A DNA stretch of 64,000 bases. It comes from Balanoglossus misakiensis. Its lineage: Eukaryota; Animalia; Hemichordata. The position numbers and the translations under genes were made by a program. Shown piece after piece: positions 25,869-57,828 of the stretch (position 1 is the first letter of the stretch; each line of letters starts with the position of its first letter). The notes below the pieces were generated by a model. It ran no database searches and had not been told where the DNA came from. It saw only the letters and a program-made list of their open reading frames with translations. The stretch is taken from assembly GCA_040954595.2 (NCBI GenBank), contig CM082583.2, positions 2,283,209 through 2,347,208 on the forward strand, in the 5' to 3' direction.

Positions 25869-25940
25869 ATTGGCGACGAGGATAAACCGGAAAAAACTCG
25901 AGAATACCGTTAACTAGTTTGAGTTGACCTACGACGTACG

Positions 25941-28900: not shown

Positions 28901-29885
28901 CGTGCCATGAGTGCCAGCTTGTTGGTCAGCCATCAGTTAAAGAGCCAGTTGTGCCAACCGAGATGCCTACAGGTCCGTGGCAGGATGTTGCAGTGGATTT
29001 GCTGGGCCCAATTCCTTCAGGGGAATACATCCTGGTTACAGTCGACTACTTCAGCAGATACTTTGAAGTGGATATCATGAAGTCTGTAACCTCCGACAAA
29101 GTCATAGCCCGTCTGGATAGCAGATTCACAACACATGGTTACCCGGTTACCATGAAGACGGACAACGGTCCGCAGTTTACGTCGTCAGAGTTTGAAAGTT
29201 ACCTGAAAGACTGTAACATAAAACATAGACACACAACTCCGTTATGGCCTCAAGCGAACGGAGAGGTGGAAAGACTCTTCTTCTGAAAACTCTGAAGATT
29301 GCTCAAGTCCAGAAGCGGGATATTCAGAGAGAGCTGAACAAGTTTCTGTTAGCGTACAGAACGACACCACACTCCACCACTGGAGTAGCACCAGCCGAGT
29401 TGATGTTCAAGAGAAAGATCAGAAGCAAGCTGCCCGATGTCATTGAACAAAGCAGCAGAGACGAGTATAGAAACGTGTATGATAGAGACTTGGAGATGAA
29501 ACAGAAGTCCAAAGACTACATAGATGACTACAGAGGTGCCCGAAGGAGCAGTATCCAGTTAGGCGACAAAGTTCTTCTGCAGCAGACTCCGAAGAACAAG
29601 TTGTCTACACGCTTTGAGGAAACTCCTTATGAAGTTGTGGATAAATGTGGCAGTCAGGTCACTATACAGTCGCCGGTTGGTGTCAGATACAGACGGAATA
29701 CATCTCATGTGAAGAAGTACCTGGAAACGACAGATGAGGATGATGTTCCAGACTCCATTGTTGAAAAGGAGGATTGTGCAGCGCCAACTGAGGAAAGCAG
29801 TGTGACCGCCCAGGATAAACTGTCCGATAGGCCACAGCGTGCTATTCGAGCTCCAAAGTATTTAGAGGACTATGAAAGATATTGA
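25941..29885 (+). pseudogene. Gag-Pol polyprotein (two CCHC knuckles, protease, RT, RNase H, integrase), broken by two frameshifts
   Basis: CYRCGRQGH..C and CNKCHTVGH..C knuckles, LIDSGA protease, RT with ISDD, RNase H ADASP/TDHKPL/ADALSR, integrase HEGH..CRTC, TDNGPQF, NGEVER. Frameshifts near 26004 (ATG 25941 is out of frame with WRKAFEFYV) and near 29272 (integrase continues in ORF 29244-29885). Confidence 0.92.
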
Positions 29886-30126
29886 ACGATCATGTGTGAT
29901 CACGTTTACTGTACTTTTGGTGTACAGACCGAACCCATGTTTGCACATTTGCATGCTTGTTTGAATTTTGCCTCGTTTGTTTGTTGAATTTCGAAAACGT
30001 TAGAAAACCGGCCACGAGATGAACACTGCATCTTAAAATTTGCATATTGTTGACTGTTAGTCTGTTAAAACGGAAAGTTTTGGAAAACTTGTTATATGAG
30101 ACTCAACATTTGGAGAAAAGGAGGGA

Positions 30127-30284
30127 TGTAGTGTATCGACCTGAGGTCACATCAGGTCACCTCATTATATATGCAGAACACAATAAAGTTCTTGGGCCAT
30201 GATGGCGGCTGTGTATAGATGTTAAATCATGTGTCTGTGTTTAATCCGATTCATCTAGACTAAATATCTAGTTGGAACAGTTCA
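30127..30284 (+). repeat. 3' LTR of Mag-like Gypsy
   Basis: Follows PPT ggagaaaaggaggga; followed by TSD GGTGG. Confidence 0.95.
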
Positions 30285-31553
30285 GGTGGTCGCCTGTCGA
30301 AATACGGTGTTTCGTGATGGTTGTTCGGCCAACGTCGTCCTTCGTTTTAGAGAATATATCTCCCCACTCACAAAGAAAACTGGCGACTTTGTCCGCGTTT
30401 TCTGGTCCAACTACTTTTATGCTATCTTCATATATAGTCGTCAGGTACGTGTGTTGGCACAGGAGAAGTTGGGTTGTCGCCCTCACCGTCGGTGTGGCTG
30501 ACTGCTGAAATCAAGGGCCGTTGAATGTCAGCTATGTCGGTGATGGTGGCTTTGGCATGTCGGATGACATGGTCTCTTTCACTTACGTTCAGCAATCGTA
30601 CTGGTACTCTTCGATTAACAGAATTTACTAAAATCTGGCCAACAATCACGCCATGTTCTGTTATCAAATCATTCTTTGTTGCCTCTATAACTCCCCATTT
30701 GATGGGTCGGGACAAAAGGGCAGTCGTCACTACTTCGTGACCAGCGGGTATTAACGGTGTCACTAATTATACACACCCGGGCGCTTAAGTGTCCTCCCCA
30801 TCTATCTAACAAGGGGACGTTTTCGCTGATGTCGGCAACGAAGACATGCATTTCTGTTGAATTATTTCCGACGGAGATAAGAAAATCCGTCTCTCCGTAC
30901 AGTGGAAGGTTGGTCGTTCCGTCTGCCATAGATGGTCGAACGGTGGATGGGATGAGTGGAGGGCGTCGAGGGTCGGGAATCATGTCGTAGGCTTGTTTCG
31001 AAATTATCGTAATTTCCGACCCACTTAAAAAGAGTGCGGTAACCATACAGTTTTATTTGACTTACAAATTCATTTTTATTTGACTGAGCTTGAAAATGAC
31101 AATATTAAAAGTGAGTTTTCTAGCAATTATCAATGTAATCCTATTGAAGGAGACATATGTGCATTAATTTGCACAGTTTATAGGTTTATGTTCTGACTGT
31201 ACATGATAGAGGTCATGCTGGAAAGAAATCAGTTCAGACTCTGGGCATGTAAAAGATCACCAGGCAGCCACAGTTATTTGTCCTATGATAAACAACTGAT
31301 CATTGAGCACATTTCTTGAATAAGTCTGATTTCTTGAAACATACCCTATGAATACATGGTGATAGTCTAGGCATGAAAGGAATACAAGCAGATCAGGTGG
31401 TGGCCATATTGCATCTTGAAACATATCAACAAGCACATGAACCATTGAAAACAAAATGGCTGCTTGCCACTCACATTGGTTTGTGATGCAATGAAAACTG
31501 ATGCATCTCATTTCATGGTAAAATTGTCAAGTTGGACTGAGACCCCTTCTTAA

Positions 31554-34899: not shown

Positions 34900-37800
34900 C
34901 TAAAAATCCAGTGGTTCACTTGAGAGAGATTCTTCATCTTCCAATTTAACAGGTCTGTAGGGAGGCTGCCGACTGGACTCTAATGTGACTCTCTCATACA
35001 CCTCTCCTTGTATTTCTTTGATGAGGGCTTGTATATTGGGACATGCCAGATAGAGATCATAGGCTGTTCCTTGCAGCAAAGGTTCCAGAAGTTTGTTGAT
35101 TTCATCCAACACGGGTATGGTCTGCATGAATAATAAATCATAAATGTTGGTTACTTGATTACTGTAAAACATTTTATTCTCGCGAGCAATAAATTTTCGC
35201 GAAATACGCGAGAGCCAAAGTAACGTGAAAATAAAAAGTCGCGTAATTGTTTTTTGAAGATAACGATGCAGTGAATGAAATAAGAGAACGCGAAAATTAA
35301 TACTCGCGAAACAGTGGCCTCTCTCGATATCGCGAAAATTTCAACTCACAAAAATAAAGTGTTTTACAGTATCGTTAAGTTCACCAAAACATTCCCTAAG
35401 GTAGAGTTTTTCCTGTGTACTTTCTGGGATAACAGAAACTGTTTTTTTTAGCTTTGGAGTGGAAAGAAATTTTTCATTTGTGATTGATGCAAAATAACAT
35501 GCTTGGAAGAATGGTTGGACATTCTAATACCACAGTGATGCTGTAGTTGTGTAGAGAGTTCAGTGAAACATGCCAATAATTCTTGCCCACAACATCAGTG
35601 TAATTTGTAGTACCGTAGTTGCCCGGGTAAGAACCCCTGCTCGGACAAACGCCCCCCCCCCCCTGGTTTTAGGGCCCATTTGTAGATCGAGGCCATATCC
35701 GGTCTAAAGCAACCCCCCCCCCCCCCCCCCCCGGCCGAATATCCATTAAATTCTTGGAAATTTAATAAAGTGCAATGCAAAAAAGGCGGATTTTCATCCC
35801 CCAAGTCACTAAAAGTGAAAAAAAAAATGTATGATGATTTACTTTCGCGCTGATTATCGTACCCACCGCGGCCGACTGGCCACGCTGAGTTATATATACA
35901 CGCTCTACTTGTTCTGGACCCGGACCGCCTGCACGCACTCAACTAGGTGAGTATGCGTTATGGGCATTGACTAGGGAAACCTTTCCGTGGCGTTGAAGTT
36001 GGGGAAAACGCTACATTGGCGCTGCGAGCAGGTGACCGGGCATATGGGTTGACACCAGGCATGCTTACTGGAACATCTTCAAGACAGAATGTTCATTCCG
36101 AAAATACCCTTCCAAGAGTCCATGCACCAAGACATCAGGGGGCAGACGCTATCCAACCCCGGCATTTCCCCAAAAATCTGTATTTTAATGGGGAGGGAAG
36201 TTGGAAATCCTTTGTCATGAGATTTTCCAAATATGCAACTTCCCAGGGTTGGTCAGCCGATGTACGACGTGAACAACTGTGCTGGTGTCTGGATGGAGAA
36301 GCTGGGGACTGTTACACCATCATTCTGGAGAACGAACCGAATATTCGTTACATGGATCTGTTGCTCAAACTGGAGCAACGCTTTGGTTATAAAGAACTGC
36401 CAGAGACAGCCCATTTGGATTTCCTGCAACAGAAACAGGAACCCAACGAGCCTCTGAACAAATGGGCTGATAGGATCCTAACTGTAGCTACCAACGCATA
36501 CAGCAGAGTATCCGATTCGTTTATGATGGAACAGGCTGTTTTACGTTTTTGTCAGGGGTGTATTGACAAGCACGCTGGGCAGTATGCCGCCAATAACTAC
36601 CCTCGGTCGATGGAACAGGCTATCAACCTAATAAAATGGCATCAATTCAATCGCCGAGCCATTTTTGACCGACCACCACCACCTCGGGTTCGGTATGTAA
36701 GCCAGGATTCTCCTCAGACCGGGGAGGAAGCTATTGAGGTAAAAGCCGTGTCTACCACCCCTCCAGGGACGTCAAAGCAGGCCTCCCCCATTGGTGAACT
36801 GGAGCGACGGATGTCACGAATGGAGCGCCACCTAGCGGACCTTACATCTACCTTAAATAAGATGGCTCTTCAACTTGAGGGTTTGGTTAGTGCACGATCA
36901 AGATCTCCTTCTCCCAGTAGGTCCAACTGCTACCGCTGCGGAAAACCTGGACATTTTCAACGGGACTGCACTGCCTCACCTTCACGTCGCTTCACCTCCC
37001 CAGAGCGTAGGGTATCCTTTTCGGAACCCCCAAACGGGAAGGGGTCCACCGATTAGGCCTGGAGGTGACCCCTAGATCGACAGGCCATCACCATCATAGT
37101 GATGTTATCCCTTCATCCATCCAAAAGAGCGGGGTGTTTCCTCCAGAGGTAACTCGGAAGGAGCGCCACGTTTTGAGGGTGGTAGGAGACGGTAACATTG
37201 CGTTGTCTTCCGTAGATGGGGTTAACGATTCACATGAATTGTTAACTATTTGTCAATTGCGTTCCGGTAAAATGTACCGCGTTCCACTTCGGATACAAGG
37301 ACATGATACCCAAGCGATAATTGATACCGCTTCGGAAGTAACTATCATTTCTGATAAGTTCTTTGACCAGTTAGATGTTAAACCGCCCATTATTAACCAA
37401 GTGACCTTCCAAACTGCCGGAAGGGAGCTGAAGATGAAGGGGTTTTTGGTGGGTCCGGTTGACATCCGATTGGGAAAAGGTCTATACTCGGAGCGAGTCT
37501 ATGTGGCTCCCATTGAGGACGAAATGCTCCTAGGCATCGACTTTGTTAGGTCTCATGGGATCCATCTAGATTTACTCAACAACATTCTTCGGATTGAGGA
37601 TGAAATAATACCCTTGCAGTTTGGTACAGTAATAGGGGAACCCAAGATCGCAAAAGTCGCTCTCTTGCATAGGGTAAGGATCCCACCAAATACTGTAATT
37701 AGACTGCCATGTGCTATGCGTGACTCCATGTCTGAGTATGTGGTTGAATCAACAGAAGATCTACTGGTAATGATACCACGTACACTCCATTCAGGAGGAC

Positions 37801-40800
37801 AGACACCTAAAGTTTGCATAGTCAACCCTACTGATGAGTTTGTGACCCTTCGAAGAGGCAAGGTCATCGCTCATGCGGTAGAGGTAGGGGCTGTTTCACT
37901 TCAACCTGTCGAATCCAAGGAAAGGAACGGAGAAACAGAGAAGGACGAAATCCCTGTACATCTTTATGATCTCTTGGAGAGGTCTGGCATCCATCTACAA
38001 GATGAAGAAAAAGCTCGAGTGCAAGATCTACTTATCGAGTATGAAGATGTGTTTGCCAAAACCGAATTTGATCTGGGGAACTTCACCACCATTCAACATC
38101 ATATCGACACCGGTGATTCCAAGCCAGTCAAACAGCGGATGCGCCGGACACCCATGTGTTTTGCGCAGGAAGAAGAGGCACATCTTCAAAAGATGCTAGA
38201 TGCAGGGGTTATCCAACCTTCTATTTCCGAGTGGGCTTCTGCTCCAGCACTAGTGAGAAAACGTGATGGGGGAGTTCGTTGGTGTGTCGATTATCGTGCA
38301 TTAAATGATCACACGACCAAAGATGTCTACCCTCTACCTCTGATTGAAGAATGTCTGGATACATTGGCAGGACAAACGTGGTTTTCAAAATTGGACGCAA
38401 ACTCAGCATATTGGCAGATTAGAATCAAGGAAGAAGACCAGAAGGAAACTGCCTTCACCACCAAATATGGTTTGTTTGAATTCAATAGAATGCCCTTTGG
38501 TCTCTGCAATGCTCCAGCCACATTCTCCAGAGTCATCAATCTAGTACTCAGAGGTCTTACTTGGGATATCGTGTTAGCCTTCATTGATGACATTCTCGTG
38601 CTTGGGACTTCATTCGACAACCATCTGACCTACTTGCGGAAAGTTTTTGGTCGACTGCGTCACTTCCAACTAAAACTGAAACCCAAGAAGTGCGATCTCT
38701 TTCAAAGAGAAGTCGTCTTCTTGGGGCGCATCATCAGGAACGGCAATGTGGAGTTGGATAAAAGTTCCATTCGAGCAGTCAAGGATTGGCCCGTACCTAA
38801 GAACACCAAAGATGTTGAGAAGTTTTTGGGATTGGCCAATTACCATCGAGCATTCATCAAAGATTTCGCTAATACGGCTGTTCCTCTCTATGGTGTTACC
38901 GGGAAAAAAGCTTTCATTTGGGGTCAGGAACAACAGCAGGCTTTTGACACATTGAAAGAGGCTTTGTTGTCTGCCCCTGTGCTCGCTTTGCCCAGCAACA
39001 CCGATCCTTTCATTTTAGATACAGATGCATCGGACTTCACCATTGGAGCTGAATTATTGCAATTGCAGAATGGGGAGGAGAAAGTAATTTCTTATGGAAG
39101 TTATGCCCTTACCCCTGAGCAACGACGCTATTGTACTACCAGGAAGGAGCTGCTAGCAGTGGTACGGTTTACTCGCCAGTACCGTCATTTTCTGTTGGGG
39201 AACCAATTTACTATCAGAACCGACCATAGCAGTCTTGTCTGGCTCCTACGGTTCAAGGACCCCCAAGGACAACTGGCAAGGTGGCTGGAAGAACTTAGCC
39301 AATACAACATGACCGTACAACACCGACCTGGGAAGAAGCACAGTAACGCCGATGCTTTATCACGCCAGCCCAATGGTGAAGTTTGCGGCGATTTTTCCAT
39401 CGAAGTTAGACCAGGAAATCTACCCTGTGGGGGATGTTACTACTGTACTCGTGCACATGACAATTGGGCTCGTTTTACCAGTGATGTGGATGATGTAGTA
39501 CCACTAGTCTCATTTCCTTATCAGGGCAAGGACACCGAATCGACCCTCAAGGTTGCTCAACTGCAAGTCACCAACCAGTTTTCAAAATGGCCATGGGAAT
39601 CGGATTTCATCTGCTGGGATCCTTTATCTCCTGAGGATGGTACTATTAGTGACCTGGATACTATGTACCCCTCAGTTGAGATAATTAAAACCGTATCCTC
39701 CCCAAAATGTTGGGTTGTTACACGGTTTCACCAAGACACCCAAGGCAGCACCTTTTTGGGGTATACGACCAAAGAAATCGGTCAGGCCCAGCAACAGGAT
39801 GCAGATCTGATTTTTCTGTGGTCATGGCTTACATCGAAAGTGGAACCAAGCAGTAATGAGATATTCTTGTCTTCTCCGGCAGCCAAGTATTATTGGATTA
39901 ACAGGGATATCTTCTTTATTGAAAAGGGGACCATATGGAGGGAACTGGATGACAGTGTGACCCTGGTTGTGCCCAGATCGCTGCAGTTGGAGGTCATGGA
40001 GTTAAATCACAACATTCCTGCTGCAGGACATCAGGGGATTACCAGGACTCAAGCCAAACTCAGGGAGAAATATTTCTGGTATGGTATGTCTCGAGATATC
40101 AACCGGTTTATTACTTCTTGTAGTGTCTGTGCAACTAGCAAGAAACCTGTGCGTCGATCCCGATTCCAGTTAACCAAGTTCCATGCTGGCGCCCCTATGG
40201 AGCGTGTCCATCTGGATTTCCTGGGCCCACTACCTCAAACAGCACGAGGGAATGAGTGTGTTCTTGTAATGGTTGACCAGTTCACGAAATGGGTGGAGTG
40301 CATACCACTTCCATCCCAAACCGCGGAAATAACAGCACATGCAGCCGTGGAAAACTTCTTTTCGCGATTTGGTTATCCATTTGAGATCTGCACTGACCAG
40401 GGAGCTAACTTCGAGAGTAAACTGTTCTCCGCAATTTGTGACGTGCTACACATTCACAAGACCCGGACTACACCCTACCGGCCCTCCGCAAATGGACAAG
40501 TGGAGCGGGCCAACAGAAGTATAATGGATGCAGTTCGATGTTTTGTGGACAAAACTCAGCGAAACTGGGATGTGTATCTATCACAAATTGCTGGAGCTCT
40601 CCGGTCCTGTATTAATAGACATACAGGATTCACCCCCAATAAGCTAATGCTTGGTCGTGAAGTCAATCAACCTTCCGACCTCGTATTTGGCTTATCATCA
40701 GTCAAAGGTAAGGATCCGCAGGACCATGTCTGTGAGCTTGAGTCCGCTATCAAGCTTGCGCATGAGATAGCAAGGACCAAACTTCAATCTACCCAAGAAG

Positions 40801-43800
40801 TAATGAAGAGGAATTATGATTTAAGGGTAAACCTTTATTCTTACGAGGTAGGGAATTGCGTTTACATGCTTGAATCTGCAGTAGAAAAAGGGAAAAGCCG
40901 GAAATTAAGTCATCCGTGGAAAGGACCTTGGATTATAATCAACAAGTTAACACCATACTTGTATAAGGTAAAATTCCAGCGGGCCATAGTAACTGCCCAC
41001 CATGATCGGCTTAAGCTATGTCGGAGCCGAGACCTGCCCCAATGGGTCATGAGGTATCAAGAAAATCTCAAACGGAATAGTACAGGTAAGGCAGAGATCG
41101 CCGATGTATCATCGACACTATATTGTGTTTGTCGGAAGCCCTATCGTGGTGAGTTCATGATCCAGTGTGATGCTTGCTCGGAGTGGTACCATGGACACTG
41201 CGTTGGGGTGACGACCAGGGATGCGCGGAGGATTTCTGTTTATACTTGTCCGGCATGTTCTTAATCTATTGTCTTTTTCTTCATTGTCCACAGACATGGC
41301 TTCTTCGTCTCCACCTGATTCACCCAAGCGCCAATGGAAGGAGGTCGCTCCGACTGATCCAAGTGCCGCTCGCCAGCGTCTTAGCCAGGAGATATCCGAT
41401 GCTACCACCAATGACTTCCTTTGGCAAGTTCGAGAGCTCGTCAATGGCATCGGTGTTATCTCCATGGGACCTGACCGGTCTGTGGCACAGGGCCAGGAGC
41501 TCCTGATCGGTCAATACACCATAGCGGCCCGGAGGAAGCGATGGGGATGGATCAGAGCCCTGCGCAAAGACGTCGATCTTTGCCTTGGTTTTGATCGCGC
41601 TTGGATTGATGAACATCTTCCTCATCCAAATCCAAGAGAAAACACTTGGTCTGCTCCCCAAAGGTCCAAGAAGTCGGCTTCGTATGAAGTTCCACCTGAT
41701 GGTATGTACCGGGACTTCCGTCTTCAGGACCCTGAGCAAGTGGAAAAATGGCAGCGGGAGTCTGTGCACTCAGGTATCCCAGACGTCCAACGCGCTCGGG
41801 GGCCGGGGGCGGGGGAACTGGTATGTCCACCGGTTGGATCCATACCGGAGGTGCAACCGGTGTTGGTTTCTGCCCCGGTGGAGGCAGCGCCGGGAGTACT
41901 TCCTGCGCCTATGGAAACGGCTAGCCCGCAACGAGGACCAGCGGTGAGGAAGGCTGTGGTGGCAACTGGCCGGGGTAAGAAGAAGTCCAGTAGAGGTTAG
42001 AAGGGGAAGGGGGTTCTGAATCAGCCTCCTGTTGGCTCCGCAGGGAGTCAGCGGGTGCAACGATCCAGCCCTCTTTCTCTGGTCGGACCCTTTAGTGAGG
42101 CTTTTCTCCCGGTTGGTTTAGGGCAACCCCCTCTCGTTCCTCTTCCCCCAGGCTACCTTGGAATACCGCCGGCAGATCATGTTCGTTGTCCCTTGCCAGA
42201 GTGCACGGAGGTAACTGTGGACCTCAGGGCTCATGTCTTGGGTAAGCATGTTCCTCCGGTACTCCGGGGTGATCATCCTTTCGAGGCTTGGAGAGTGTTC
42301 CATGCTTTGGGCATTCTTCATTCCTGGATTGTTGGGGGATCACCAGGTTCACCGGCCATGAGCTTGTTGGTTTATTTCGTGCGGTTTGGCCATGTCTTTC
42401 TTCCGCCGGTTTCATCGGTAGAGGAAGAGTATTTTCCTTTGATGCATCAGCTATGTAGGGATTTGGGGCTCCACCCGCCAAATTCTCCCGCTGTACTCGT
42501 TTACTGGAGAGTGCTCTTGGTTTTGTTGGGTTTTCTTTCTCCTTTGCAGAGAGCGGAGTTTGCAGGCCTCTTCAGCGGGGATCGGCAGATTCTGCAGGCC
42601 AAGAAAACCAAGCAGAGCCATCCTCTGCCCAGGAAGTCGTGCACTGTGTCCCGATCACAGGAAGCGCAAGATTTGATTGCCTCGGCAACTGCTTCTGCTT
42701 CAGGGAGCCAGAGTTTGGATGTAGGTCCTCGCCCGACTAAGTCTAAGGGTAAGGTGAAATGTGTTGGCAGTGCGGCTTCGCCACTGGGAGCCTTTGATTC
42801 GCATTTTCATTTGGATCGATTGACTTCTTCGTGGCGGGGTACTGTCACCCGCGTGACATCGGACGTAGTGGTCTCCTCCCCTTCCATGCTGAAACAAAAA
42901 ATTTTCTATTTTCGTTTCTGTTAGTAAATACTTACCTTTGATCCAACCTATAGCCTAATATATCTCGCCCTCTAACGACCGCTGAGATAAAAAACTTTCC
43001 CCTGATTACGTCATACTCACCGAGTATATATACCACCTGTCCAGCCGTGAATATTCAGTATTGCTCAGCACGAGAATAACTGCTCAGGCCGAAACTATGC
43101 TGCCCACGCACTGAGGACCCATCCAAAATTTATGAATAATGGAAAAACAGTCACAGGTCAAGTGTGGGGAGGCGGGTGGGTATCTGGTTGGATCAAAGGT
43201 AAGTATTTACTAACAGAAACGAAAATAGAAAATTTTTTGTTTCTATGGCATAAATACCATACCTTTGATCCAACCTATAGCCTACAGAGTCCCAAGGAAC
43301 AACTGGCGGTGGGACTTGAACCGAAAAAACAAAATTCCAACAGAAAGAACCAGGCTATTACTTACTGTGAGCTACCCTTTGAGCTACACAGATAGGACCC
43401 AAAGAAAATAAGCCATCTGCTTCCGCTGCCATATCTCGCAGATAAGCAGAGGAAAAAGTAGTCTGTGATCTCCACTGGACTGCAGACAATAAATCAGCCA
43501 TGGAAGTCCCTGAAAAAAGTGACCATGAAGCAGCAAGAGCTCTGACTTCATGAGCTGACACCTTAGCCCAGCTAATTGCTTCTTCTGAAGGGCTAGAATA
43601 AGCAAACTTAATAGTCTCGACGATCCATCTGGAAATAGTCGACTGTGAAATAGACATACTGGGTGTAACCCTAATGGAGATAAACAGCCTTGTCTGCTCT
43701 CCCCTCCTGTCTTTTGTTCTCTGCAAATAATACTTTAGTGCTCTGACAGGACAGAGCAACCTATCCTCTGAACGCTGACCGACTAACTTCGTCAGTTTCG

Positions 43801-46800
43801 GAATAACCAGAGGCGATTGTGGCAGATCCGCAATCCGATTCTTTGCCAAGAAAGCTGGGTCAGTAAGCAAAGTGACACTGTCTGCTGACCAACGAATATG
43901 AGCTGAAGCCATAGACAGGGCATGAAGCTCACTACGGCGACCTGCCGTAGCTAATGCCAAAAGAAAAACAGTCTTGTACGTCAAGAACTTCATCTCTGCT
44001 GTTTGCAAAGGTTCAAATGGAGCTCCTAATAAAGCATGTAGAACCAAAGATAAACTCCACTGGGGAACCAGTGACTTTACAACTGGTCGCGCCAAAGAGA
44101 AATTATTTATCAAAGCAGAAATAGACTCGTCCAGGGTAGTAACTTCCTCACCCAACAATCGAAGTGTGTTACCTATAGCTGAACGGTACGCCTTAATAGT
44201 GCTCACTGCTGTCTTTTTCTCCTTAAACAAATAGAGGAAAAAATCTGCTAGCTGAGGAGGCGTGGGTCTGAGAAAATCAATCGACCTTTTCTCACACCAA
44301 TGACGAAAGGAACACCACTTTGAATCATATGCTGCCGTGGTGGATGCTCGTCGGTGTTGTGCGATGCGCGAGGCAGCTTCTGCAGAAAAGCCTCTTGCCT
44401 GCAAACTGAGCTTGATAGTCTCCAAGCGTGGAGGTGAAGGTGTTGTGCTACCGGAGGCAGCCGAACAGTCTCCTCGATGTAATTGTGTGGTAATGTCAGT
44501 GGACAGTCCACCAGTAACTGGAGTAGTCTTGGAAACCAAGGACGTGTTGGCCACAGTGGTGCAACTAGAATTACTTCGCATTCTTCGTGTGCTACCTTGG
44601 AAATTACCCTGGAGATCAACGGTAGTGGGGGAAATGCATATGCCAACATTCCCTTCCAGCTGATTGACAGAGCGTCGCATGCTAGTGCTTGTGGTTCCGA
44701 CCTTAGTGACGCGTAAATCGGGAACTTGCGATTCTTGGCTGTCGCAAATAGGTCTACGTGGGGCCTGTCCCAAATCAGACAAATCTGCTCTACTAGCGGT
44801 TGCCGTAGAGCGCACTCTAGTGGATAGAACTTGTCCCGTGATAGAGCATCTGCCAGAATGTTGCTTGTGCCCTGAACGTGGAGTGCTTTCAGCGTGATGC
44901 TGTTCGCCTGGCACCAATTCAGCATGTCCCATACCAGATAACACAGGCTGGGTGATCTGGTGCCGCCCTGGTGATTTATAAATGCGACTACTGTGGTGTT
45001 GTCTGACCTGATCAGAATCACCTTGCCGCAAATGTCTTGGTGAAAGTGGAGAAGTGCCAACTGTACTGCCTTCATTTCCAACCAATTTATGTGCCGCACT
45101 GACTGGTCGACTGACCATATCCCTGAGATTGTCCTGTCTCCCAAGTGTGCACCCCATCCTTGGAGAGATGCGTCCACAAACAGTGACACCGTCGCCAACG
45201 GGGATACTAGGGGATTTCCCTCGAGAGTATTCCCCCTGTCTAGCCACCATTGCAGGTGTGAAACTAGAGGTGGCTTTACCTGAATAAGGTCCGTCAACTG
45301 TCCGGATACCGGCCTCCAATGGGCCAACAGAAACAGTTGAATTGGCCTCATATGTAGTCTGCCTAAAGGTATTGCCTCGGCTAGAAAGTTCATGCGACCC
45401 AGGATGCTGAGCAATGTGCGTGCTTGGACCATGGACTCTGAACTGATCCAATGCACTTGCTGTTCTAATTTCAACAGGTTTTCCTCCGTAGGGAAAACTA
45501 AACCCTTGGACAGGTCCATGACCATGCCAATGAACTGGATCCTCTGTGAGGGGATTAGACAAGACTTGTCTGTGCTCGGAATGAACCCCACACGAATGGT
45601 CTCCCGTAGTGTGGTTTGTGTGTCTGCCAGTGTCAACTGGAAACTGGAATTGTGTAGCAACCAGTCGTCCAGGTATGGATTGGCTTGTACTGCTCGGGAA
45701 TGAAGGAAAGCCATCAACGCCCCTACTACCCGTGTAAAAATAGCCGGGGCAGTGGCCAAACCGAACGGAAGAGCCACAAACTGGAACAGCTTGCTCCCTA
45801 TCGCAAAGCGAAAGTACCTCTGGAAGTGAGCATGGATAGGAATGTGGAAATAAGCATCCTGCAAGTCTATCGTCGTTGCCCAATCTCCCGAGGAGAGAGC
45901 CTGATGAATAGTTCGAGTGGTCTCCATACGGAAAGACTCGATTATAATGTACTGATTGAGCACGCTCAGGTCAAAAATGGGTCTCCATCCCTGTGACTTC
46001 TTTGGAATAAGGAAAACACGACTGAAAAAACCCGTATCCTGAACTGGTAAAGGGACCTTTTGAATGGCCCCTTTTTCCAACAGCCCCTGTATGGCCCTCC
46101 ACATAGGAGGGGAAGGGTGCGATACCAAATGACTTGGAGGATACAATGAAAGGGGTGGAGACGTCCTGAAGAACAGACGAACCCCTTCCGAAACTAAAGA
46201 GAGGACTGTTTGGTCGTCTGTAATCTTCTGCCATTCCTGGGCAAAATGTTTCAGACGACCCCCAACTGCTACTTGTGGCAATGGTGTCTGGGGCATAGTC
46301 ACAGATTGTGACCACCCTTTGTCCTGACTTGTGTAGTCACTTGTGCTGGCTGCTAGCCCCTTTGGGGGGCTTAGCCTGCTGACGAAAGGGCTGACCCTTC
46401 CTTTGCTTATTAAATGGTCTCTTCCTAGCAAACTTCCGTTTGCTGGTGACCTTTGACACAGAAACAGAAGACTGAGCTTGTGCTACTGCTAACTGTTCTA
46501 CCGCCAACTTCTGTTTAAGCAACTCCTCATTTGTTCTAAGAACAGCATCAAATTGCCCATTAAAAACCAATGGACCTGACCATGGGAGAAGACGGGCAGT
46601 ACGAGCTGCCTCCCTTTCCAAAGGAAGATGACTGATGAGATGGTCACGTGTCATCAACACTTGAGACGCTGCCATACGGGAATTCAATTCTGCTTGATAA
46701 ACCACAGTCTTAGCGGCTTCAGTTAACAACAGTCTGGCATGCTGCCAATTTTCTGCTAACTGAGGAGTAGATTCACCCTCCTGCATGGGTTTAAGCTCTC

Positions 46801-49800
46801 TGCTTAAAGCTGAGAGTAACAGAAAAGTGCAATTAGAGATCCTTGCGGAAAGACGAGTAGTTGCCTCTAAGCGGGCAAAATCCTCAGCCCTAATCACATA
46901 ATTCCTCAAAACCTCTTTATTTCTTACCAACTGCTTTGCGGATTCATCAACCGCTGGTGCAGAGTGGTAGAATGGTCCACGTGTAAGATCAAACACGCGA
47001 CTACCCTGAGGTCTAGACACCAATGGGAAACCATGACTTGGCATCCCTTGAGGGTAACAACGAGGTTTCTTGTTAGCAGTGTAACTAAAGTCCCTGGTGC
47101 CTTTAATCTCGGCATGTACCGTGTCTATCAGAGACGACAGACGAGGAATAAAAGGTAGCTTTCGGTGTACCGGATCAGCTGCCTTACCCAACACATGCTC
47201 AAAAGAAGCCGTCAGCTGTTCTGCCGACACTTCAGCAGTGGGTGGGGGACATTCCTCAGGGGGTACAGTATTATACACTAGCATAACCGCGTCAGCCCAT
47301 TGACTGGCGCGACTAGTTTCCTCTTGATCGGACAAATTGTCTTCATCCTCATCCTGCCCCTCTGACTCCGATTGTGAAACATCGAAGGAGGAAATAGGAG
47401 GGGCAGGGACAGTGTGACCACTGTGCACAGGATTTTGGCCCGACACAGAGACCCGATTAGCTTGAGCAGGCATACCCCAGCTTGTGGACTGAAGTGGTGC
47501 CGCTAAATTAGAGGGAGGACAAGTCCATGGGAAACCCCACGACTGTTGGAAGCCAGGAGGGGGAAAATTCCCACCAGCCTGAGCGACTCCCGAAGCTAAT
47601 TGGTCTGGTACACACATAGGGGGTGGGCCGTGAAGCCCTCCCCACACACTACCGGCACTACCTATGGCCGTCGAAGGCACTGGATTAGCCAAGACGGAGG
47701 TAGGAACCGTATGAAAATACCTAGAAGACATACCTGCATAATTCGGCCAAACACCTGACTGAACAGTTTGCGCCGATGAAACACCTCCCAAATGAGATGG
47801 ACCAGGAACTGCTGCATCCAAAAGGGAAGAAACCGGCAAAACAGGAGTTTCTGCAACCGTCCTAGTAGCTGATGAATCCAACTTGGATCGCTTCGAAACG
47901 AGCGAAGCCCTAGCAGAAGCATGGCCGCCATCTTGGGACGACCCCCTAGCTAACTCAGAAAAAACATCAGGCTCTTCAGAGTGCGCTGAATGGAATTCTT
48001 GACCCGGAATAGGCAGTTGAGAGTCTTCTATTTCCGAAGGAGTTCGAGAAGACGACCGCGACGCGGTGTCAGAAACTCTCTCCGTCATGGTTCCAGTGAA
48101 AACACGAAAAAATGCACGGGCAAAAATGGCTTCTGAAGGCTATATGAAAAGACAATACCGCAGAAGCCCTACACACTGACCCGTACACGTGTGGGAAAAA
48201 TCCGAAAAACAAACTTTGCAAGTGCCAAAATAACACTAGCAAGCAGTTTAGAAAATAAGTCGTTACTTATCTACTTCCCCAATCGAAAAACCTCAGGCGA
48301 AAAGCAGCAATGGTCGAAGGGCTGAGCACTTCTTGACAAAAATCCAACACCTCAAGAGAGAAGATGTCCGCTGTCTCGTGCTGAGATAATAATACTGAAT
48401 ATTCACGGCTGGACAGGTGGTATATATACTCGGTGAGTATGACGTAATCAGGGGAAAGTTTTTTATCTCAGCGGTCGTTAGAGGGCGAGATATATTAGGC
48501 TATAGGTTGGATCAAAGGTATGGTATTTATGCCATAGAAATCACTGACGGGGATTCCCGTATTGGGTGGGGTGGAGGTTTACTGTGACCCTACGACTTTT
48601 CCCACCAATCTTTCCCGGAGTAAGCGTTGGAAAATTGCTGTGGGAATACATCCCAAACAGGCGGCAACACTGACTGGAAGTCGACTGGAGAAGTTCAAGG
48701 AATTAATCCAATCCCCTCAGGTGGCAGCAATTGGGGAGGTTGGGTTAGATTTCTCTGTTGAGACAGACAAATGGCCCCTCCAGGAGACCGTGTTCAGGTT
48801 GGCCCTTTCCCAGTGTGATCCACGGAAGCTCCTGGTTCTGCACATCAGAGGAGCTGCTGGAGATGTGTGTATTGCTGCTGTCGGGCGTAGGGCTCTTGAA
48901 ATCGTTCGTGAGTACTGCGCCAGTGAGCAGTTGATCCACTTCCATGGCTTCACTGGAGATCGTTTTGTGGTCGAGTGCTGGATCAGGGATTATCCGTACT
49001 GTTACTTCAGCTTTAATGCTGGTGTTAACACTTTTTCTACCCCTCAGCTTGAAGCACTCAGGGCGGTGCCAGAGGATCGTCTTCTCTTGGAGACGGACTC
49101 CCCGTACTTCCCTGTGGCCAATGGTGCCAAGCCCAACACTCCAGCCTTTATCGGAGATGTTGCTGTCCTGGTTGCGGCGCGGCGGGGGATACCTCTGAAC
49201 CAGCTACTGGAAGCTGCTGCCAACAACACCAGGCGCTTGTACGGCTTCGACTGAACGGGTAATCTTTGGGGGGGTCCTATTGGCGTTAGACTGTGAAATC
49301 CATATTACATCCGGAGCTGCCTTCCATGGGTCTTTCACTTTTATCTGGGCCCACGCCACTGGGGATATTTTTGCTTGTTGGTTTTTGTTACTTCCGGTCC
49401 CTCCCCAGTGGCAGTAAAATTGTGTTTGCCACCATCGTGTAAGAATCGATCTCGACGGTATGGCTCTAAAAAGTCCCCAAAAGAAAAAAAAAAACGTGCC
49501 ATATCCCGGATTGATTCGAATCGGCTGTTCCGTCCATAATCATCTAACCATCTATGAAAGGAATCTCCCAGTTTCCAGAGATCCACACGGAACCCATCGC
49601 TTCAGAAGAAAACAGGGGAGAGTGTGGTATTTCTGGAGAATACCTCACCTGGAGTATACCAGTGCCTGGAGATTCCTGTGGAAATGCTGATTGGGTGGTG
49701 ACCCTTATGTGACCTGTCACGTGACCCCGTGAAGGTTATATATATCACCGTGGGACCGGAAGCCGGGGTTCTCTCTCGTCTCGTCCATGGTCTGGTGCTA

Positions 49801-52800
49801 CACGCTCTACTTGTTCTGGACCCGGACCGCCTGCACGCACTCAACTAGGTGAGTATGCGTTACGGGCATTGACTAGGGAAACCTTTCCGTGGCGTTGAAG
49901 TTGGGGAAAACGCTACAGCCGCTCTAGAAAACATGACCTCAGACAGGTCCCTCGGGACCGTGCCTCGAATTCAACGATCACGTAGATGGACGCGCTGCCG
50001 CGTGTGAGGTCACCGGGGAGCTTTCCAAAGCGGCCGCGTGGAGCTGCTTCAGTCCGTCCTGGACGCGAAACACCCAACATTGGAAGATCCCGACTTGGAC
50101 TCGGAAAATGAACCACTCAAAAATTTGCATAAAAGTCGAGGTGGTCATCCCTCATTTGCATAAATCTCGAGGCCATATCCGGGCTAAAGCCCCCCCCCCC
50201 CCCCCCCCCCCCCCACTGTTTTTTCGCTAATCTGTTGGCCCAGCACCCGGGGCTCTTACCCGGGCAACTACGGTAAATATGCCACAACACATTCTATTTC
50301 TAGTGATGCATTCCAGTACAGCTAAAGTAAAAGAAATTTGCTATTGCAACTTGATAACTTTGACCACCAACAATGGCAACTATCAACACTGATGCCTTAA
50401 TGACTTGGTGTGAATTATCTCCATTGTATAGCGTGTTGAAACGTTCCAGGTATCAACTTTCTATGGTTCTTTGACAGTTACCTTCGCACTACGTTCGCCA
50501 CAGTTGCAAATTGCGAAGAAAAGTCTGTGGTGGCAGAAAAAATAATACAATGTATTCGCAACGTGTGGCGAACGGCAATTTCTCCAGCTGATGAAGCATT
50601 TAGTTCTTTTTATTTTGATGATACGCATGACAGTAAAGACGATCACCGATTTTAATTTTGCAGTTGTAGTTTGATAAAAAAAGAACAATAAAGGTGAGCA
50701 ACTACGGTAACAAAGTGCATACAGTGTATCAAAGGTCGATGAAACCCACGTCTGAAAATGACGAGAAATCCGGGAACAGTGCGCGTTCTCCGGATCGTTC
50801 CATTACGAAGTCCGATGAAGCCATATGTGACGTGTACGCGCACATGCCCTACAAGTTATAAATACTCTTGGATTGAGATGATCGGAAGCTTATACTCATA
50901 TATTCCTTGTAGAAAATATGATTTTACATTTGATAGCCTAAAACTGGTCAAAAGGGTAAGTTACCCATTGTACAATTTCCACATTGATGTAGTTACCCTC
51001 CTGCTACTACTTTGCATAGTGTTGCTTTTGGATATCAGTAAACATGCAGGATTTACATCTATCTCTATTGCTGGGTTCACATCTAGGACCATGGCCGGGC
51101 AAAACTTATCCCAATGATTGTGACAAGATAACCTAATCTTTAGTCCCCGTTCACATTGAGTTTGGCACAGTCCTGGCCAACGTCGTCTCGCCAACCTTTG
51201 ACCTTTGAAATGTGCCATGGGTGAATACGGTCGATCAGAGAGAATGGAAAATGCTTAAAAGACAATTGATTTCTTCCGTACCCCTGTCGACTCCTCAACT
51301 CACCATTGTCAAATGATAAACTACACTGTTATGTCAACTGTAAAGGACCAGAGTCGGACAAAACTTGTCCACACACACCAGGCCGTGATGAGAATTGGCC
51401 ACAGATCACCCCTTTCGACTGGGACACAAAATTGTCCGGACAATGGCCGGCCAGACCCGTTCACACCTGTTTTTTTGCTCAGCCATGTACCTGGCCAGGA
51501 CAAGGGCCTAGCCTTTTTTGAGCAATGTGAACAGCCTCTATACTGCTTGAAATCACATAACTTTAAAATCACAAAAGAAATCTGCATCAAACAAGAGGCA
51601 TACTGCAGACTACTTACAGAATAATCCACTGAAAGGAACATCTGAAATGTTTCTTGATCTCGATCTGTCACTGATTTCAGTTTATTTTGGACGTACAGTG
51701 GAAGACTTCTTGGTGCAAAGCTGCATCCAGACTTCAAGACATTGTCAAGTTTCTCTCTGTAAGCAGTAGCCATTTTCCCAAGTACGCTGAGTTTCAATGC
51801 ACCCTAAAATATGAAATCAACAGAAACAAAATACAATAAAACAGACACATCTTGAAGATTCCATCTCAAAGCATGACCCTACAGACAGTGGTTTTTGTCT
51901 TTTTACATAATTTTTGGAAATATTTGTTCAGTATGACAAGGTTCTGAACAAGAATATACAGATACACTCTTACACATCTTAGAGACATGCATATGGCATA
52001 CATTTTTGTGATATATTTATGGAAAGCACAAGAGGGCACGGCAGACAGTTGTTCATTCAACTGCAGGAGAGCTGTAGTATGTTTATTACTTCCATACACA
52101 TGCACACTCTACAAAATCATGAATACTTAGGGGTTATTACACGAATATTGGTCGATAACGAGTCGTATTCGAGTGATGTCCGTATTTTGACGAGTTGCAA
52201 AAGAAACGAGTCAAAAGACAGACTCGCGCTATCGCCTCGTGCTATTGACCAAAATTCGTGTAATAACCCCTTTATCATACATGCCTACCTATAAAACAGT
52301 ACGATTTGCGAAAATGTGCCGAGAAAAACAATTTCACGGCTAGAAATTTGAACCGGGCGCCCTGGGATCACAGTAGCAGCCCATACCCAAGTGAGACAGG
52401 GTGATACGATCAGGTGATCAACGTGTAGGCCGTAGTATTATTCTAAGGGGGTTGGCAGCTTTCATTACGATGGGCACATCCGCATTCTAAATAAAATTGT
52501 CTACGTTTTCTTTCAAAATATCATGTGAACAATTATTTCGCATTGAGAATTCCGAAGAAGTAAAAATGATACATTCAACATGACAAAACCGCCAGCTTTG
52601 AAAACTTTATTACAGCTTCTAATAACCGAATTTTACAACACCCCTCTCCACTAGAGCCCTATGCCCCGTGTGTCGCTCGCGCGCGCAGCGAACTGTCGTG
52701 CCGATGACACTGAGTCAACGCAGTGTGATGATTTCAGCGCGTTCTCAAAAATAGTTCGAGACGCGGACGCGGTATTTCACCTAGTGAAATACTGTATAAT

Positions 52801-55800
52801 ATCTTCAGTGCGAGAACAATAGAAAGTGCCAAATACAGGCATTGCATTGTATGATAAATGCATATATTACACAGTTTCCTGTAAATCTGCTTTATTACTA
52901 TTTTTATTACAGCATTTTCCAAGTTAATGCATGGAATACACTGGTCTCATTCCAATGTAGCTTGTGTGTTATATAAGATGACGTGCCTTCATTTTGAACC
53001 ATCACACAGTTTCATCCAATATAAAGCCTGACCATGGCGTGAATCAATATATAGCTGCTGTTTCATTATTTATCTTGACAATGTGAAAAAGTACTTACTT
53101 GTTCCTCTGGAGGCAAAACTTCTGGTTGTTGTTCTGCTTTCTTTTTCTTGGGATCGACAGGGGGTGGAGGAGGAGGATTTCTTTTCAACTGTAAAGCTGC
53201 TGCCAATACACTGTCCGATTCTAAATCATAGATGATAAGGTCTTGCATGGTTTTATTCAGGCCAATGAGATACTCAATCTGGTATGCTGTACTGTGTAGC
53301 ATCCTATAGCAGTCCGGGATGTACTGGTGTTGCTGTTAGAGGTAAAGCAATACATGATAAGAAATGACTATCAAGTGCCAAGAATATGATAGACATACTG
53401 TAAAACACTTTATTTTCGCGAGTTAAAATTTTCCGCGATATCGAGAGAGGCCACTGTTTCGCGAGTATTAATTTTCGCGTTCTATTTCATTCACTGCATC
53501 GTTATCTTCAAAAGAAATTTACACGACTTCTTATTTTCACGCTATTTTGGCTCTCGCATATTTCGCAAAAATTTATTGCTCGCGAAAATAAAGTGTTTTA
53601 CAGTATTTCATCGGGGCCAAGCCATTGTCAAAAATAGTCACTGCTGGATAAGAAAACATTGGACAAATGCGTAAAAAGAAAGTGGCTCTGAAAATGTTCA
53701 TAACAAAGTATACTGGCTGGGTATTACATTGAAGCATATGATAAAACAATCACGCCAAATACTTGGCATGCACATGTACCAGTATATTCTGTAAGTGCAG
53801 TCTCTTACTTTCTCTTTTTGCCATGCTATAGAAAATCGCTGTTTCAATTACCTTGTATATCAGTGATCTAGTAAGTATCCATTTGAAAACAGTGACGTAA
53901 TCCTGATTGTCCGTGGCTTCTTGAATCTTGGATTTGATGAAGACATTGGTGGTTTTCAGATTGCTCACACTGTATGGATTGTGCCTGTCTTCTGGACCAC
54001 CTTGTTGAAAATGGAATGCGGCCTGTAATGATCATAAGATGTCAAAATTGACCCGAGTGTAGTCTAACATGTTTCTGGGGAGACTTTGAGTCAACTCTAA
54101 GTGTGTCAGTCCTGTATCTTCACACTGAACTGGAGGTGGCACTAACTGTCGTTCTTGCAAGCTCCAACAATTTTTAAGTCCCATTTAGAGTGTATATATA
54201 CCATGGGACCTTATGGAAACAGTTGCGTCTGTATGTATGGATGGATAGATGTATGTCTGTTTATCCGTTCACATCAAATACTTAAAAAAGCTGTGGAAGA
54301 TAAATATATGGGACGAAATCAGTCGATGGAACCAGATCAAATCCGAAAATGGTCTGACATCAAATGTCAAAGGGCACGTTTGCTGATCAACATGTACAAC
54401 ATTTCCGTTGTAAACAAACCCGCGCATCATTTCAAGTGTTGCGGGCAATATTTACAGCTTGCATGTAGCTACAGTTGCCCAAACCTTTCTTCTATCTTCA
54501 TTAGGTAGCATTCCATGATGAATGTACGGAAAAAACGGGCAATTTTCGATGATGAAAAATGGATAAACATGAGAAATACTGGGGCTTTAACATTTACATG
54601 ACACTCCAAAACTCAGTGATTTACAATGAAATAACCAGTATAAACAGTAGCAAAGTTGGCCATTTTCATCATGTTTATATGGTGCACTCACCTTTTCGTG
54701 ACTGAAAAATGCATTCTGATACAAATTAGCTAGGTTGTAAGGAAAGAATGTGCGGTAACTGTAACAAGAAAAAAATTCATTCTTGGATGACGTGTCAAAC
54801 ATACGGTAACACTCTTGATTAGTCAGACACATTGTAATTGTGCTCTCCCTGAGGCTTTGAAAACTCATCTCAGTATGGTTGTATCACTGCTATTACAATC
54901 TACAAAATGTCTTCTTAAAATAGGATCTTTGGCAGAAATTTTGAGACATTCCTGCAAGAATACTTCTGATTGCCATACATACACATGGCTTATAGCAGCT
55001 AAAAATCCAATTTCTTATCTAAGCTGCTTTTGGCAATTTCCATGAAATAGAAAAGACATATTTTGAATGTACATGTATATATACTTACTCATCTTCAGTG
55101 TTCTCGACATAATGCAACAAGAGATGCTTGACAATTTTGAGGTATCTCCAGCCAATAGCTCTGTACACCTAAAAATAAATACAAGCATGAAATTTGTTAT
55201 ACAGCTCTTACTGGAAAAAGTGATACAAAACACAATTGACAGGGCCACAGGTCGTTGATGTTCAAATATGCCCTATTGTCATTTGTTGGAAAATTCATCC
55301 AATCGGATGTACCCTGATAGTCAATATGAGAATATCCAATCATTAACGATTCAAATTAACATTAATTATGCAAGCCACACCCACCAAAAACAAATCAGCT
55401 CTTCCCTTTCAAAACATTTGACTCCTGATATGTCTACCAGTACCTTTAGGGGGGGGGGGGGGGTAGGGGGGTAGGGGGTGTCATCTGAAACTCTTTTCTG
55501 TTTATTAACACACCATCAGTATTGTTACCACTGTTCAGGGAGACTGTCAACCGATACTATAATTATCAAAGTCACTCGGGAATGTGAAAAAAAGTAATGA
55601 TGCATTGTTTGCCATGGTCTGCATACAGTGAAATACCCTGCAATAGCAACCATATTGTTTTCAAGGAATGACATACATTGCAGTAGCTACACTTTCTGCC
55701 TACTCTGCTTTGCTAGCAACTATGCCGTAAGACCCATACTTGAAGCCACAAATCAGTTGACCCATCTGCTCGCTGGTAAATACAACTGTCATATGTTGTA

Positions 55801-56851
55801 ACCTACCCTCAAGTAAAGTGGTTGCTTTGTTTCCACTGCCTTGGAGACTTCCAGTTCAAACGCATTTGCTTTCTTTCTTATGTCATCCAAGCTCCATCTT
55901 GCTACATCTCCAACATACAGTCCCATCACGACAACAGAGTGGTCTTGGCTCAACTTCAGCACATAATTGCGAACTGTGGTCCAAGCATTAACGTAATCAT
56001 TAGGCTGTTGTATAATATCTTTGGAAGAAATAATTCTACAAAGAAGTGGACAACCTTGCAATGCCACAGATCCTACTGAATGCCATTGAAGCACTGCCAC
56101 ATCAATTAAAGAACCATGATCGAGCAGCCAAATTTCACATATATTTTTTTCCTAAATAAAAAAAACTTCGAATCTTCTCCCTATCCTTTAAAATCCTCAG
56201 CATTAAGCCACTGTACTTGTATTTGCATCAGTTTGTCATCTCTTGGTGACATATTCAACAATAGTTTTGTACTTTTTACATGGTGGCCGAATAAGGCTTG
56301 AGTTGCAAATGCATGAGTTGCGACTGGATAATTAGAAACATTAATAAGCTTTAAAAAATGATTTTAATTCTGTGTATTAAACGTACCAGGCATTAATTTA
56401 CGTGGCACTGCTGAATATTGTTCAATGCGTCACGTTTTATTATTAGCTGCAGCAAAATTTCTCAAATTTAATTCAGCTAGTATTAAAGGTAAATCATACC
56501 AGGTTCACACAGGATAAATTTTGAGATGGTTCTAAAGCTTTTCAGATAAGATACCGTCTTAAAAAAACATGTGTGGACGGTGTATAGTGGTTCTGAAACG
56601 GCTTAGATTTGAGACGGCTTTGCCGGTCAGACCTGAGCCGGTGTACATGTAAGGTTTAACACCTCTCCGCAACCCATTGTCTATGGGGCTGAGTCTCAGC
56701 GCCTATACATAAACTTCGTGTGTGTGGACACAACGCGACTCAAAGGATTAATGCATACCGTAGTTGTCCGGGTAAGAACCCCTGCTCGGACAAACACCCC
56801 CCCCCTGGTTTTAGGGCCCATTTGTAGATCGAGGCCATATCCGGTCTAAAG

Positions 56852-56888
<37 letters not shown>

Positions 56889-57828
56889 CCGAATATCCAT
56901 TAAATTCTTGGAAATTTAATAAAGTGCAATGCAAAAAAGGCGGATTTTCATCCCCAAAGTCACTAAAAGTGAAAAAAAAAATGTATGATGATTTACTTTC
57001 GCGCTGATTATCGTACCCACCGCGGCCGACTGGCCACGCTGAGTTATATATAGCCGCTCTAGAAAACATGACCTCAGACAGGTCCCTCGGGACCGTGCCT
57101 CGAATTCAACGATCACGTAGATGGACGCGCTGCCGCGTGTGAGGTCACCGGGGAGCTTTCCAAAGCGGCCGCGTGGAGCTGCTTCAGTCCGTCCTCGACG
57201 CGAAACACCCAACATTGGAAGATCCCGACTTGGACTCGGAGAATGAACCACTCAAAAATTTGCATAAAAGTCGAGGTGGCCATCCCTCATTTGCATAAAT
57301 CTCGAGGCCATATCCGGGCTAAAGCCCCCCCCTGTTTTTTCGCTAATCTGTTGGCCCAGCACCCGGGGCTCTTACCCGGCAAACTACGGTAATAAATCTC
57401 CTATATTATTACGATTATTATTAATTTCAATAACTTACTTATGTCAAGATAGATAAGCACTGCTTCACCATGGCAACCCTGAGGTCCTTTAAAGTAACAA
57501 TGCTCATGCAATTCCAAATCATTCAGATATGGCATCATGGCACCATACATTGGGGACCAACCACTGACAGCAAATGCCATTGCAATCTGTAAGGAATAAT
57601 AATAAAATTGATTGGTTGGTTGGATGGATGGATGGATGGATGGATGTCTGGACTTGACTGAACGACCGACTGACTGGCCTTGGTGGGACTGACTGAAGGA
57701 ATGAATGATGGATGGATGGATGGATGTCTGACTGAATGAATGACCGACAGACTGGACTTGATTGGACTGGACTTGATTGGACTGACTGACTGACTGACTG
57801 ATGGAATGAATGAATGAATGAATGAATG

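Follow-up and report, generated by a model that had tools for sequence, protein, structure and literature searches.

Among the closest described systems, the chromoviruses (e.g. MAGGY) share with the element reported here the Gypsy order of Pol domains, a histone reader at the integrase C-terminus and a proposed tethering function (PMC6673714), but their reader is a chromodomain for H3K9me, whereas the present element ends in a PHD finger, predicted to recognise H3K4me2/3, and has an extra ORF for a TatD protein. The chromodomains direct chromoviruses to heterochromatin (PMC6673714, bioRxiv 2021.11.30.470311), and a survey argues that targeting of active chromatin should harm the host (bioRxiv 2021.11.30.470311), a point against the targeting proposed here. 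A second relevant system, Gypsy-7a_cRei of Chlamydomonas, also has a PHD finger in Gag-Pol, for which a role in target choice was suggested (PMC9940879). It differs in coming from a green alga and in having its PHD listed before the integrase, so that it is probably not C-terminal; the available portion of that paper mentions no TatD and gives no reader class for the PHD, and it reports Gypsy-7a insertions to be 2.6-fold more intergenic than expected (PMC9940879). Capture of a PHD by transposons, including a Chlamydomonas Gypsy element, has therefore already been published, and the PHD-integrase lineage described below is a variant of the known theme of reader-tipped integrases.

The window, a stretch of 64,000 nucleotides from the hemichordate Balanoglossus misakiensis, contains a Ty3/Gypsy LTR retrotransposon in which gag is followed by pol in the order PR-RT-RH-IN, an order that excludes the Gmr1 type. 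The coordinates of its features are collected in Table 1.

Table 1. Features of the Gypsy element and of its insertion site (positions within the window)
Feature	Position	Strand	Remarks
Host MITE with terminal inverted repeats around the Gypsy element	35611..50276	.	halves 35611-35896 and 49918-50276
5' LTR remnant, 3' 119 nt	35897..36015	+	1 difference/119 vs 49799-49917
gag frame: PNMA-like capsid region, CCHC knuckle	35971..37056	+	N-terminus shortened in window copy
Primer binding site (TGGCGCTGCGAGCA...)	36017..36032	+	similar primer binding site in L002
pol: protease, RT, RNase H, integrase, linker, PHD	37011..41264	+	frame open, 1417 codons
Predicted -1 frameshift site C CCA AAC, gag/pol overlap	37029..37035	+	
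PHD finger, C4HC3	41121..41258	+	Pfam match, PDB sequence alignment
Predicted splice acceptor, pyrimidine tract + CAG	41276..41293	+	just ahead of ORF3 ATG
ORF3 first part, up to start of TatD	41296..42890	+	ATG at 41296
DIRS-type retrotransposon in TatD domain	42891..48540	-	gag, RT/RH, tyrosine recombinase
ORF3 second part, remaining TatD barrel	48541..49254	+	GEVGLD, LHIR, HFH, ETDSP motifs
Polypurine tract	49604..49622	+	junction GGGGGAGAG/TGTGGT same in L081
3' LTR, complete, 295 nt, TG...CA, TATA box and splice donor	49623..49917	+	

LTRs with TG...CA ends, a primer binding site and a polypurine tract are all present, the 5' LTR being truncated in the window copy; the LTR ends were fixed by contig ends. 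The primer binding site is presumably of the tRNA-Ser type. Missing from the 5' LTR are its first 176 nt together with the left copy of the target site and, with this left junction deleted, no intact target-site duplication was seen on comparison with the empty MITE. An empty copy of the MITE lies at 56756-57392, and contigs show the empty-site joint of 35897 to 49917. An internal deletion begins at the primer binding site; in a contig of the family, 36026 is preceded by 1661 additional letters. The gag frames of relatives are 474-771 codons long and some open with a helix-hairpin-helix (HhH) motif; those of L081 (7693-9618) and L086 (374-2416) open with the PF12836 form, in the part that is missing from the window copy. 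A -1 frameshift between gag and pol is likely, as the overlap contains C CCA AAC and four of nine relatives (L002, L081, L084, L086) have TTTAAAC at the equivalent place.

The window copy is a damaged member of a young family: contigs from two runs of one sample span the element with neither the stop in ORF3 nor the DIRS insertion, and over 36026-40929 they differ from the window copy at 25 positions. Nineteen of these differences change an amino acid and six are silent, a proportion in keeping with neutral decay, and the PHD is free of all 14 differences listed for 40881-42890. Contigs of the two runs join across the DIRS insertion, where four letters fit either side. The DIRS element itself (5.65 kb, antisense) has perfect inverted terminal repeats and three long open frames, of 600, 744 and 870 codons. 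One contig joins the primer binding site (36032) to 40881, an arrangement that would keep the C-terminal domain, the PHD and ORF3; the joint is weak, its short side being 30 letters.

Elsewhere in the window there is a satellite array (767-24361) of about 187 copies of a 126-nt unit with 97% matches. The unit contains ATTTGCAT, which we take to be an octamer-like motif and which also occurs twice in the MITE (50123, 50154). Older, degenerate Gypsy remnants occupy 25711-31052, with pol-like pieces (27097-29271, 32-35% identity), direct repeats of about 160 nt at 25711 and 30127, and minus-strand frames that resemble a protease (30428-31052). A second short palindromic MITE-like family is found at 35160-35372, 53393-53606, 58823-59034 and 60878-61038. 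No Rfam match was obtained in 24000-64000 of the window.

The integrase of the window pol has an H2C2 motif, the catalytic residues D1069/D1129/E1165, a GPY/F-type motif and an SH3-like C-terminal domain. Beyond these and a linker, Pol ends with L1370 (41118), then YCVCRKPYRGEFMIQCDACSEWYHGHCVGV...YTCPAC and a stop at 41262-41264. The original prediction had given this end, its coordinates and its place at the end of the integrase; re-reading of the frame showed the sequence and coordinates to be exact, and the PHD does lie beyond the integrase C-terminal domain. It had also called the end a C4HC3 PHD finger and proposed a Pfam search. In that search PF00628 matched the 54-residue Pol end over all 47 profile positions with E 1.1e-11 and 45.1 bits, where the Pfam cut-off is 24 bits, and still gave E 1.4e-9 within the whole Pol. 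All eight zinc ligands are present (C1372, C1374, C1386, C1389, H1394, C1397, C1413 and C1416; 41124-41258). The pattern of cage plus C4HC3 occurs once in the six frames of the window and in none of 100 shuffled windows, which rules out a chance match. A host PHD exon adjoining the retroelement is ruled out by the continuous frame and by the presence of the fusion in 115 of the 120 matches listed.

An AlphaFold model of the integrase had a mean pLDDT of 86.6, with 85-96 for the PHD and 57 for the linker before it; the PHD structure was taken from this alignment-based model, a single-sequence fold having given a pLDDT of 61. Foldseek showed that the model resembles foamy virus and Ty3 integrases, and only integrases were among the matches listed; as the query was the whole integrase model, this result is uninformative on the PHD.

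The best PDB sequence matches of the PHD were PHF2 (1e-16), BPTF (6e-15), DIDO1, PHF8 and CXXC1, so that its assignment to the H3K4me3-reader type, for which PHF2/PHF8, BPTF and DIDO had been named, holds at the level of sequence. The cage of PHF2 for H3K4me3 consists of Y7, Y14, M20 and W29 (PMC9898751), and Y1371 (41121), Y1378 (41142), M1383 (41157) and W1392 (41184) of the window Pol align with these residues one-to-one and unambiguously, with the acidic D1387 and E1391 alongside. In H3K4me3 readers the cage includes an invariant Trp and adjoins an Arg2 pocket that is often acidic, and H3K4me0 readers are without a cage (PMC3241642). The window PHD has the invariant Trp, the back-wall Met and the aromatic residue before the first zinc-binding Cys, and D1387/E1391 are presumed, from PMC3241642, to form the pocket for H3 Arg2.

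Among the 120 homologues listed, M1383 is kept in 115, W1392 in 114 and Tyr or Phe at position 1371 in 113; positions 1387 and 1391 are each acidic (Asp or Glu) in 108, PHF2 having Asp at both. The fourth cage position is Tyr in the window copy and varies in the family (D 58, W 23, Y 17, C 8 of the 120). The predicted Y..Y..M..W pattern thus stands for the window copy, where it aligns with the PHF2 cage, but not for the family as a whole, in which the fourth position is most often Asp (58/120). This variation is compatible with reading of H3K4me3, since TAF3 with Asp and DIDO1 with His at the variable position both bind H3K4me3, at 1-2 uM (PMC8246079). Counted against the reader assignment were acidic residues that precede the first Cys in many family members; residues of this kind are also used by H3K4me0 readers (PMC3241642).

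Mean column conservation in the same 120 homologues is 0.64 for the PHD vs 0.26 for the linker, and in the PHD codons of nine elements third positions vary at about twice the rate (0.60) of the other two (0.32 and 0.29). By homology, the PHD very probably binds H3K4me2/3.

A query with the integrase end gave 356 matches, and PF00628 was found in 115 of the best 120. The named PHD carriers among the matches listed were Pinctada, Ostrea, Haliotis, Nucella, Batillaria, Lytechinus and Diadema, and the named relatives of the element are molluscs, echinoderms and a brachiopod. As this query favours PHD carriers, a second search used the RT-RNase H region alone. Of the 120 matches listed, 104 were at least 60% identical; 40 of these in-clade Pols end before the integrase C-terminal domain is complete and were set aside. 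Among the 64 that extend through this domain, 62 carry the PHD, and the two exceptions end 20 and 33 residues past the domain. No PHD was found in the 16 distant matches of the RT-RNase H search. Absence of the PHD from other copies, which the original prediction had named as grounds for rejecting it, was thus not what was found, and the possibility that the PHD is unique to the window copy is ruled out by the same 62 of 64. Nearly all homologues listed have the PHD at, or close to, the Pol terminus, and the ESM Atlas contains mollusc-dominated clusters of the same PHD-integrase kind.

Fast trees were made of the RT (94 rows, leaving out 18 of 88 loci with short or broken frames) and the integrase (61 rows), with no named chromovirus reference in either. 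In both, the PHD elements grouped at 99% support, and the PHD-less rows inside the group are truncated. One PHD-bearing Pol from Batillaria (P0113) fell outside this group in both trees, among the PHD-less sisters. A single gain of the PHD in the lineage is plausible, although neither tree recovers it cleanly. Two Pols of the lineage (P0035, P0226) carry PF01885, annotated by the source as RNA:NAD 2'-phosphotransferase (Tpt1/KptA). Several entries (L081-L088, P0004, P0037, P0039, P0137) come from genomes labelled Sedimenticola, Ca. Thiodiazotropha and SUP05; the elements there are most probably host DNA misassigned to bacterial assemblies during binning. No related loci were found in viral contigs.

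The PHD had been proposed to stand at the Pol end instead of a chromodomain. No chromodomain was matched in the window Pol by the Pfam search, the PHD being there instead, and the position is, by analogy, the same as that of the chromodomain in chromoviruses. In the nearest PHD-less relatives (L006 and L009), however, an acidic linker followed by an Arg-rich tail, not a chromodomain, forms the end of the integrase. The PHD therefore occupies the position of the Arg-rich tail, and not demonstrably that of a former chromodomain. Tails of this RxxR..P..L.DY type were matched in 13 of 50 tails, including those of more distant Gypsy loci. Arg-rich tails of this type presumably dock on nucleosomes.

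Within the LTR bounds, pol is followed by a separate third ORF, which rules out that the TatD is part of Pol or is a host gene. The first part of ORF3 comprises an N-terminal domain, an in-frame stop (41998-42000), a C2H2-type zinc finger (42187), a conserved PNSPA core (42478) and the TatD HxH motif (42796); the stop and the DIRS insertion interrupt it in the window copy. PF01026 matched the TatD domain with E 8.7e-38. The HxH motif, which marks group II TatD proteins (PMC10085689), is present in the ORF3s of 11 of 11 relatives, and the two pieces in the window together hold this motif and the Glu, His, His and Asp metal ligands, as in group II. The human enzymes TATDN1 and TATDN3 act as 3'-exonucleases and AP endonucleases (PMC10085689), and the TatD of the lineage is predicted to be an active enzyme of the same kind. 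ORF3 is likely to be made from a spliced RNA, judging from the putative acceptor ahead of its ATG and a consensus donor in the LTR (49849 in the 3' LTR); under a strict rule an acceptor precedes ORF3 in five of 14 elements.

The association of ORF3 with the PHD was examined in 88 loci. Twelve have the PHD, and an ORF3 profile matched in 11 of them; in the twelfth (L086) the contig ends 170 nt past the PHD, and the TatD of another (L053) is cut by the contig end. Only two of the 76 PHD-less loci matched the profile: L009, with core and TatD, and L006, with no TatD. The ORF3 of L006 (3514-4680) has a GDSL esterase ahead of the same zinc-finger core. A query with the core alone, which belongs to no Pfam family, found 31 proteins; 15 of the 30 scanned had a TatD match, one of these below the cut-off. 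ORF3 resembles a conserved core that can carry different enzymes, and it either predates the PHD or is independent of it. PHD and TatD are separable, since L009 has TatD and no PHD. An architecture of two accessories, PHD and TatD, had been predicted; it was seen in 11 of 12 PHD loci, but the TatD is in a separate ORF and occurs also with a PHD-less Pol. In L082 (1-10769) a 7761-nt unit with integrase-PHD and ORF3, and with no gag or RT match, is repeated in tandem.

For the directly observed combination of fusion, full cage, retention in the lineage, variable linker and co-occurrence of PHD and ORF3, it seems somewhat probable that the PHD acts as an H3K4me2/3 reader tethering the intasome to chromatin that bears this mark. 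The PHD fused to the integrase would bind H3K4me2/3 and anchor the integration complex on chromatin of the promoter type, so that new insertions would likely be biased towards it; the TatD of ORF3 might assist in processing of the cDNA or of integration gaps, which is the weakest step. We infer the binding by homology and the targeting role by analogy with chromoviruses and with engineered tethers, such as a fusion of the ING2 PHD to an integrase tether, with which retroviral integration shifted to start sites (PMC8149907). Chlamydomonas Gypsy-7a, with its PHD and non-random insertions, is a further precedent (PMC9940879). The sole full insertion context, that of the window copy, is a high-copy MITE that lies 11 kb from the 23.6-kb satellite array, with remnants of other elements around it. 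This setting gives no support for promoter targeting and is confounded by post-insertion selection; the other insertion flanks are two or three and short. The repeat-rich context is also what would be expected if the PHD read H3K4 methylation for general docking on chromatin or nuclear retention of the pre-integration complex, with little effect on the site. Such docking would raise efficiency, e.g. in germ cells, and the Arg-rich tails at the integrase ends of L006, L009 and many distant Gypsy loci point the same way. It is nevertheless unlikely, as the elements of molluscs and echinoderms alike retain a mark-specific cage and, in experiments, PHD tethers do change where integration occurs (PMC8149907). 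A function with no histone reading at all, as a passenger or structural zinc finger, is barely credible: the function of the PHD is a prediction from sequence, but its surface cage residues are kept nearly like the zinc ligands (114-115 of 120) while their neighbours vary, and 62 of 64 in-clade Pols retain it.

A role apart from integration would require the PHD to be released by the protease or to bind a non-histone methyl-lysine, as a decoy or anti-silencing factor and possibly with ORF3. The linker is short, variable and of low confidence, so that protease cleavage within it is possible, and the PHD of PHF2 binds, besides H3, the K4me3 mimic in VRK1, a non-histone methyl-lysine (PMC9898751). 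In 11 of 12 loci with the PHD, ORF3 is present too, but it is also found with no PHD in L006 and L009; moreover, the linker has no conserved motif among the 120 homologues listed that could mark a cleavage site, and the PHD keeps its place at or close to the Pol end in nearly all of them, which leaves this explanation quite improbable. Less probable still is steering to a narrow H3K4-methylated niche serving as a safe haven, such as the promoters of repeats, of multicopy genes or of the element's own LTRs. The window insertion (35890-35898) abuts a TATATATA run in the MITE, and in one other flank a TATA-like motif lies some 12 nt away from the end of the LTR, but these are two sites only and words resembling TATA are frequent. 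L081, L082, L083 and L085 show tandem or circularly permuted units, but assembly collapse or LTR recombination would also yield such contigs. Tethering by an H3K4me2/3 reader is therefore preferred. Its fullest form is a tentative and rather doubtful one, in which the lineage would be the active-chromatin mirror of the chromoviruses, its own H3K4me3 reader docking on promoters with no host cofactor and a zinc-finger ORF3 with a swappable enzyme, here a predicted AP-endonuclease/exonuclease of the TatD family, finishing or protecting integration.

If targeting by the PHD is true, it matters for several reasons. Known reader-tipped integrases aim at silent chromatin, and a reader of an active-promoter mark would represent the opposite strategy, retained in both molluscs and echinoderms although it should be costly to the host. 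The PHD-integrase would also be a compact natural targeting module, and oysters and sea urchins allow PHD-bearing and PHD-less sister families to be compared within one genome. The TatD of ORF3 represents a nuclease family for which no report in retrotransposons was found in the literature searched. The searches likewise found no description of the PHD-integrase lineage; such elements may already be listed in sources outside their scope, namely Repbase, Dfam, subscription journals or the supplements to bioRxiv 2021.11.30.470311. The term PHD is absent from the main text, as available, of the mollusc survey that defines the MolGy clades of mollusc Gypsy elements (PMC6238403), of annelid surveys, of an errantivirus paper and of PMC5890265.

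The cellular readers PHF2/PHF8/KDM7A, BPTF, DIDO1 and CXXC1/Spp1 share with the element the C4HC3 fold, the Y-x-M-W cage and the acidic residues, but in the element the PHD is fused to an integrase and the fourth cage residue is variable (D, W, Y, C). PHD fingers occur in other mobile elements. The ORF1 of CR1 is reportedly a PHD-bearing transposon protein. Ginger1-9_HM has Ulp1 and a PHD, the latter C-terminal to a Gypsy-like integrase, but belongs to a different element class (PMC2836005); the PHD-bearing Chlamys PLEs (PMC8557442) and the cnidarian retrotransposon-PYGO PHD fusions (bioRxiv 2021.11.30.470311), also a case of PHD capture, differ in class or position. In the available portions of these sources, none of the four cases is presented as a Gypsy integrase-PHD that is shared by a whole lineage and accompanied by TatD. 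CopiaMBD of arthropods is likewise a captured host reader in an animal LTR lineage with a proposed insertion bias, but it is a Copia element that reads methyl-CpG, and its binding has been shown where that of the window element is predicted (PMC6673714). The bdelloid elements Juno and Vesta share a non-env, enzymatic ORF3, typically made from spliced RNA (PMC5408684). Their ORF3 cargo is a DEDDy exonuclease or a GDSL esterase (PMC5408684), the latter as in L006, whereas the nuclease of the window element is a TatD (group II, HxH) on a conserved zinc-finger core.
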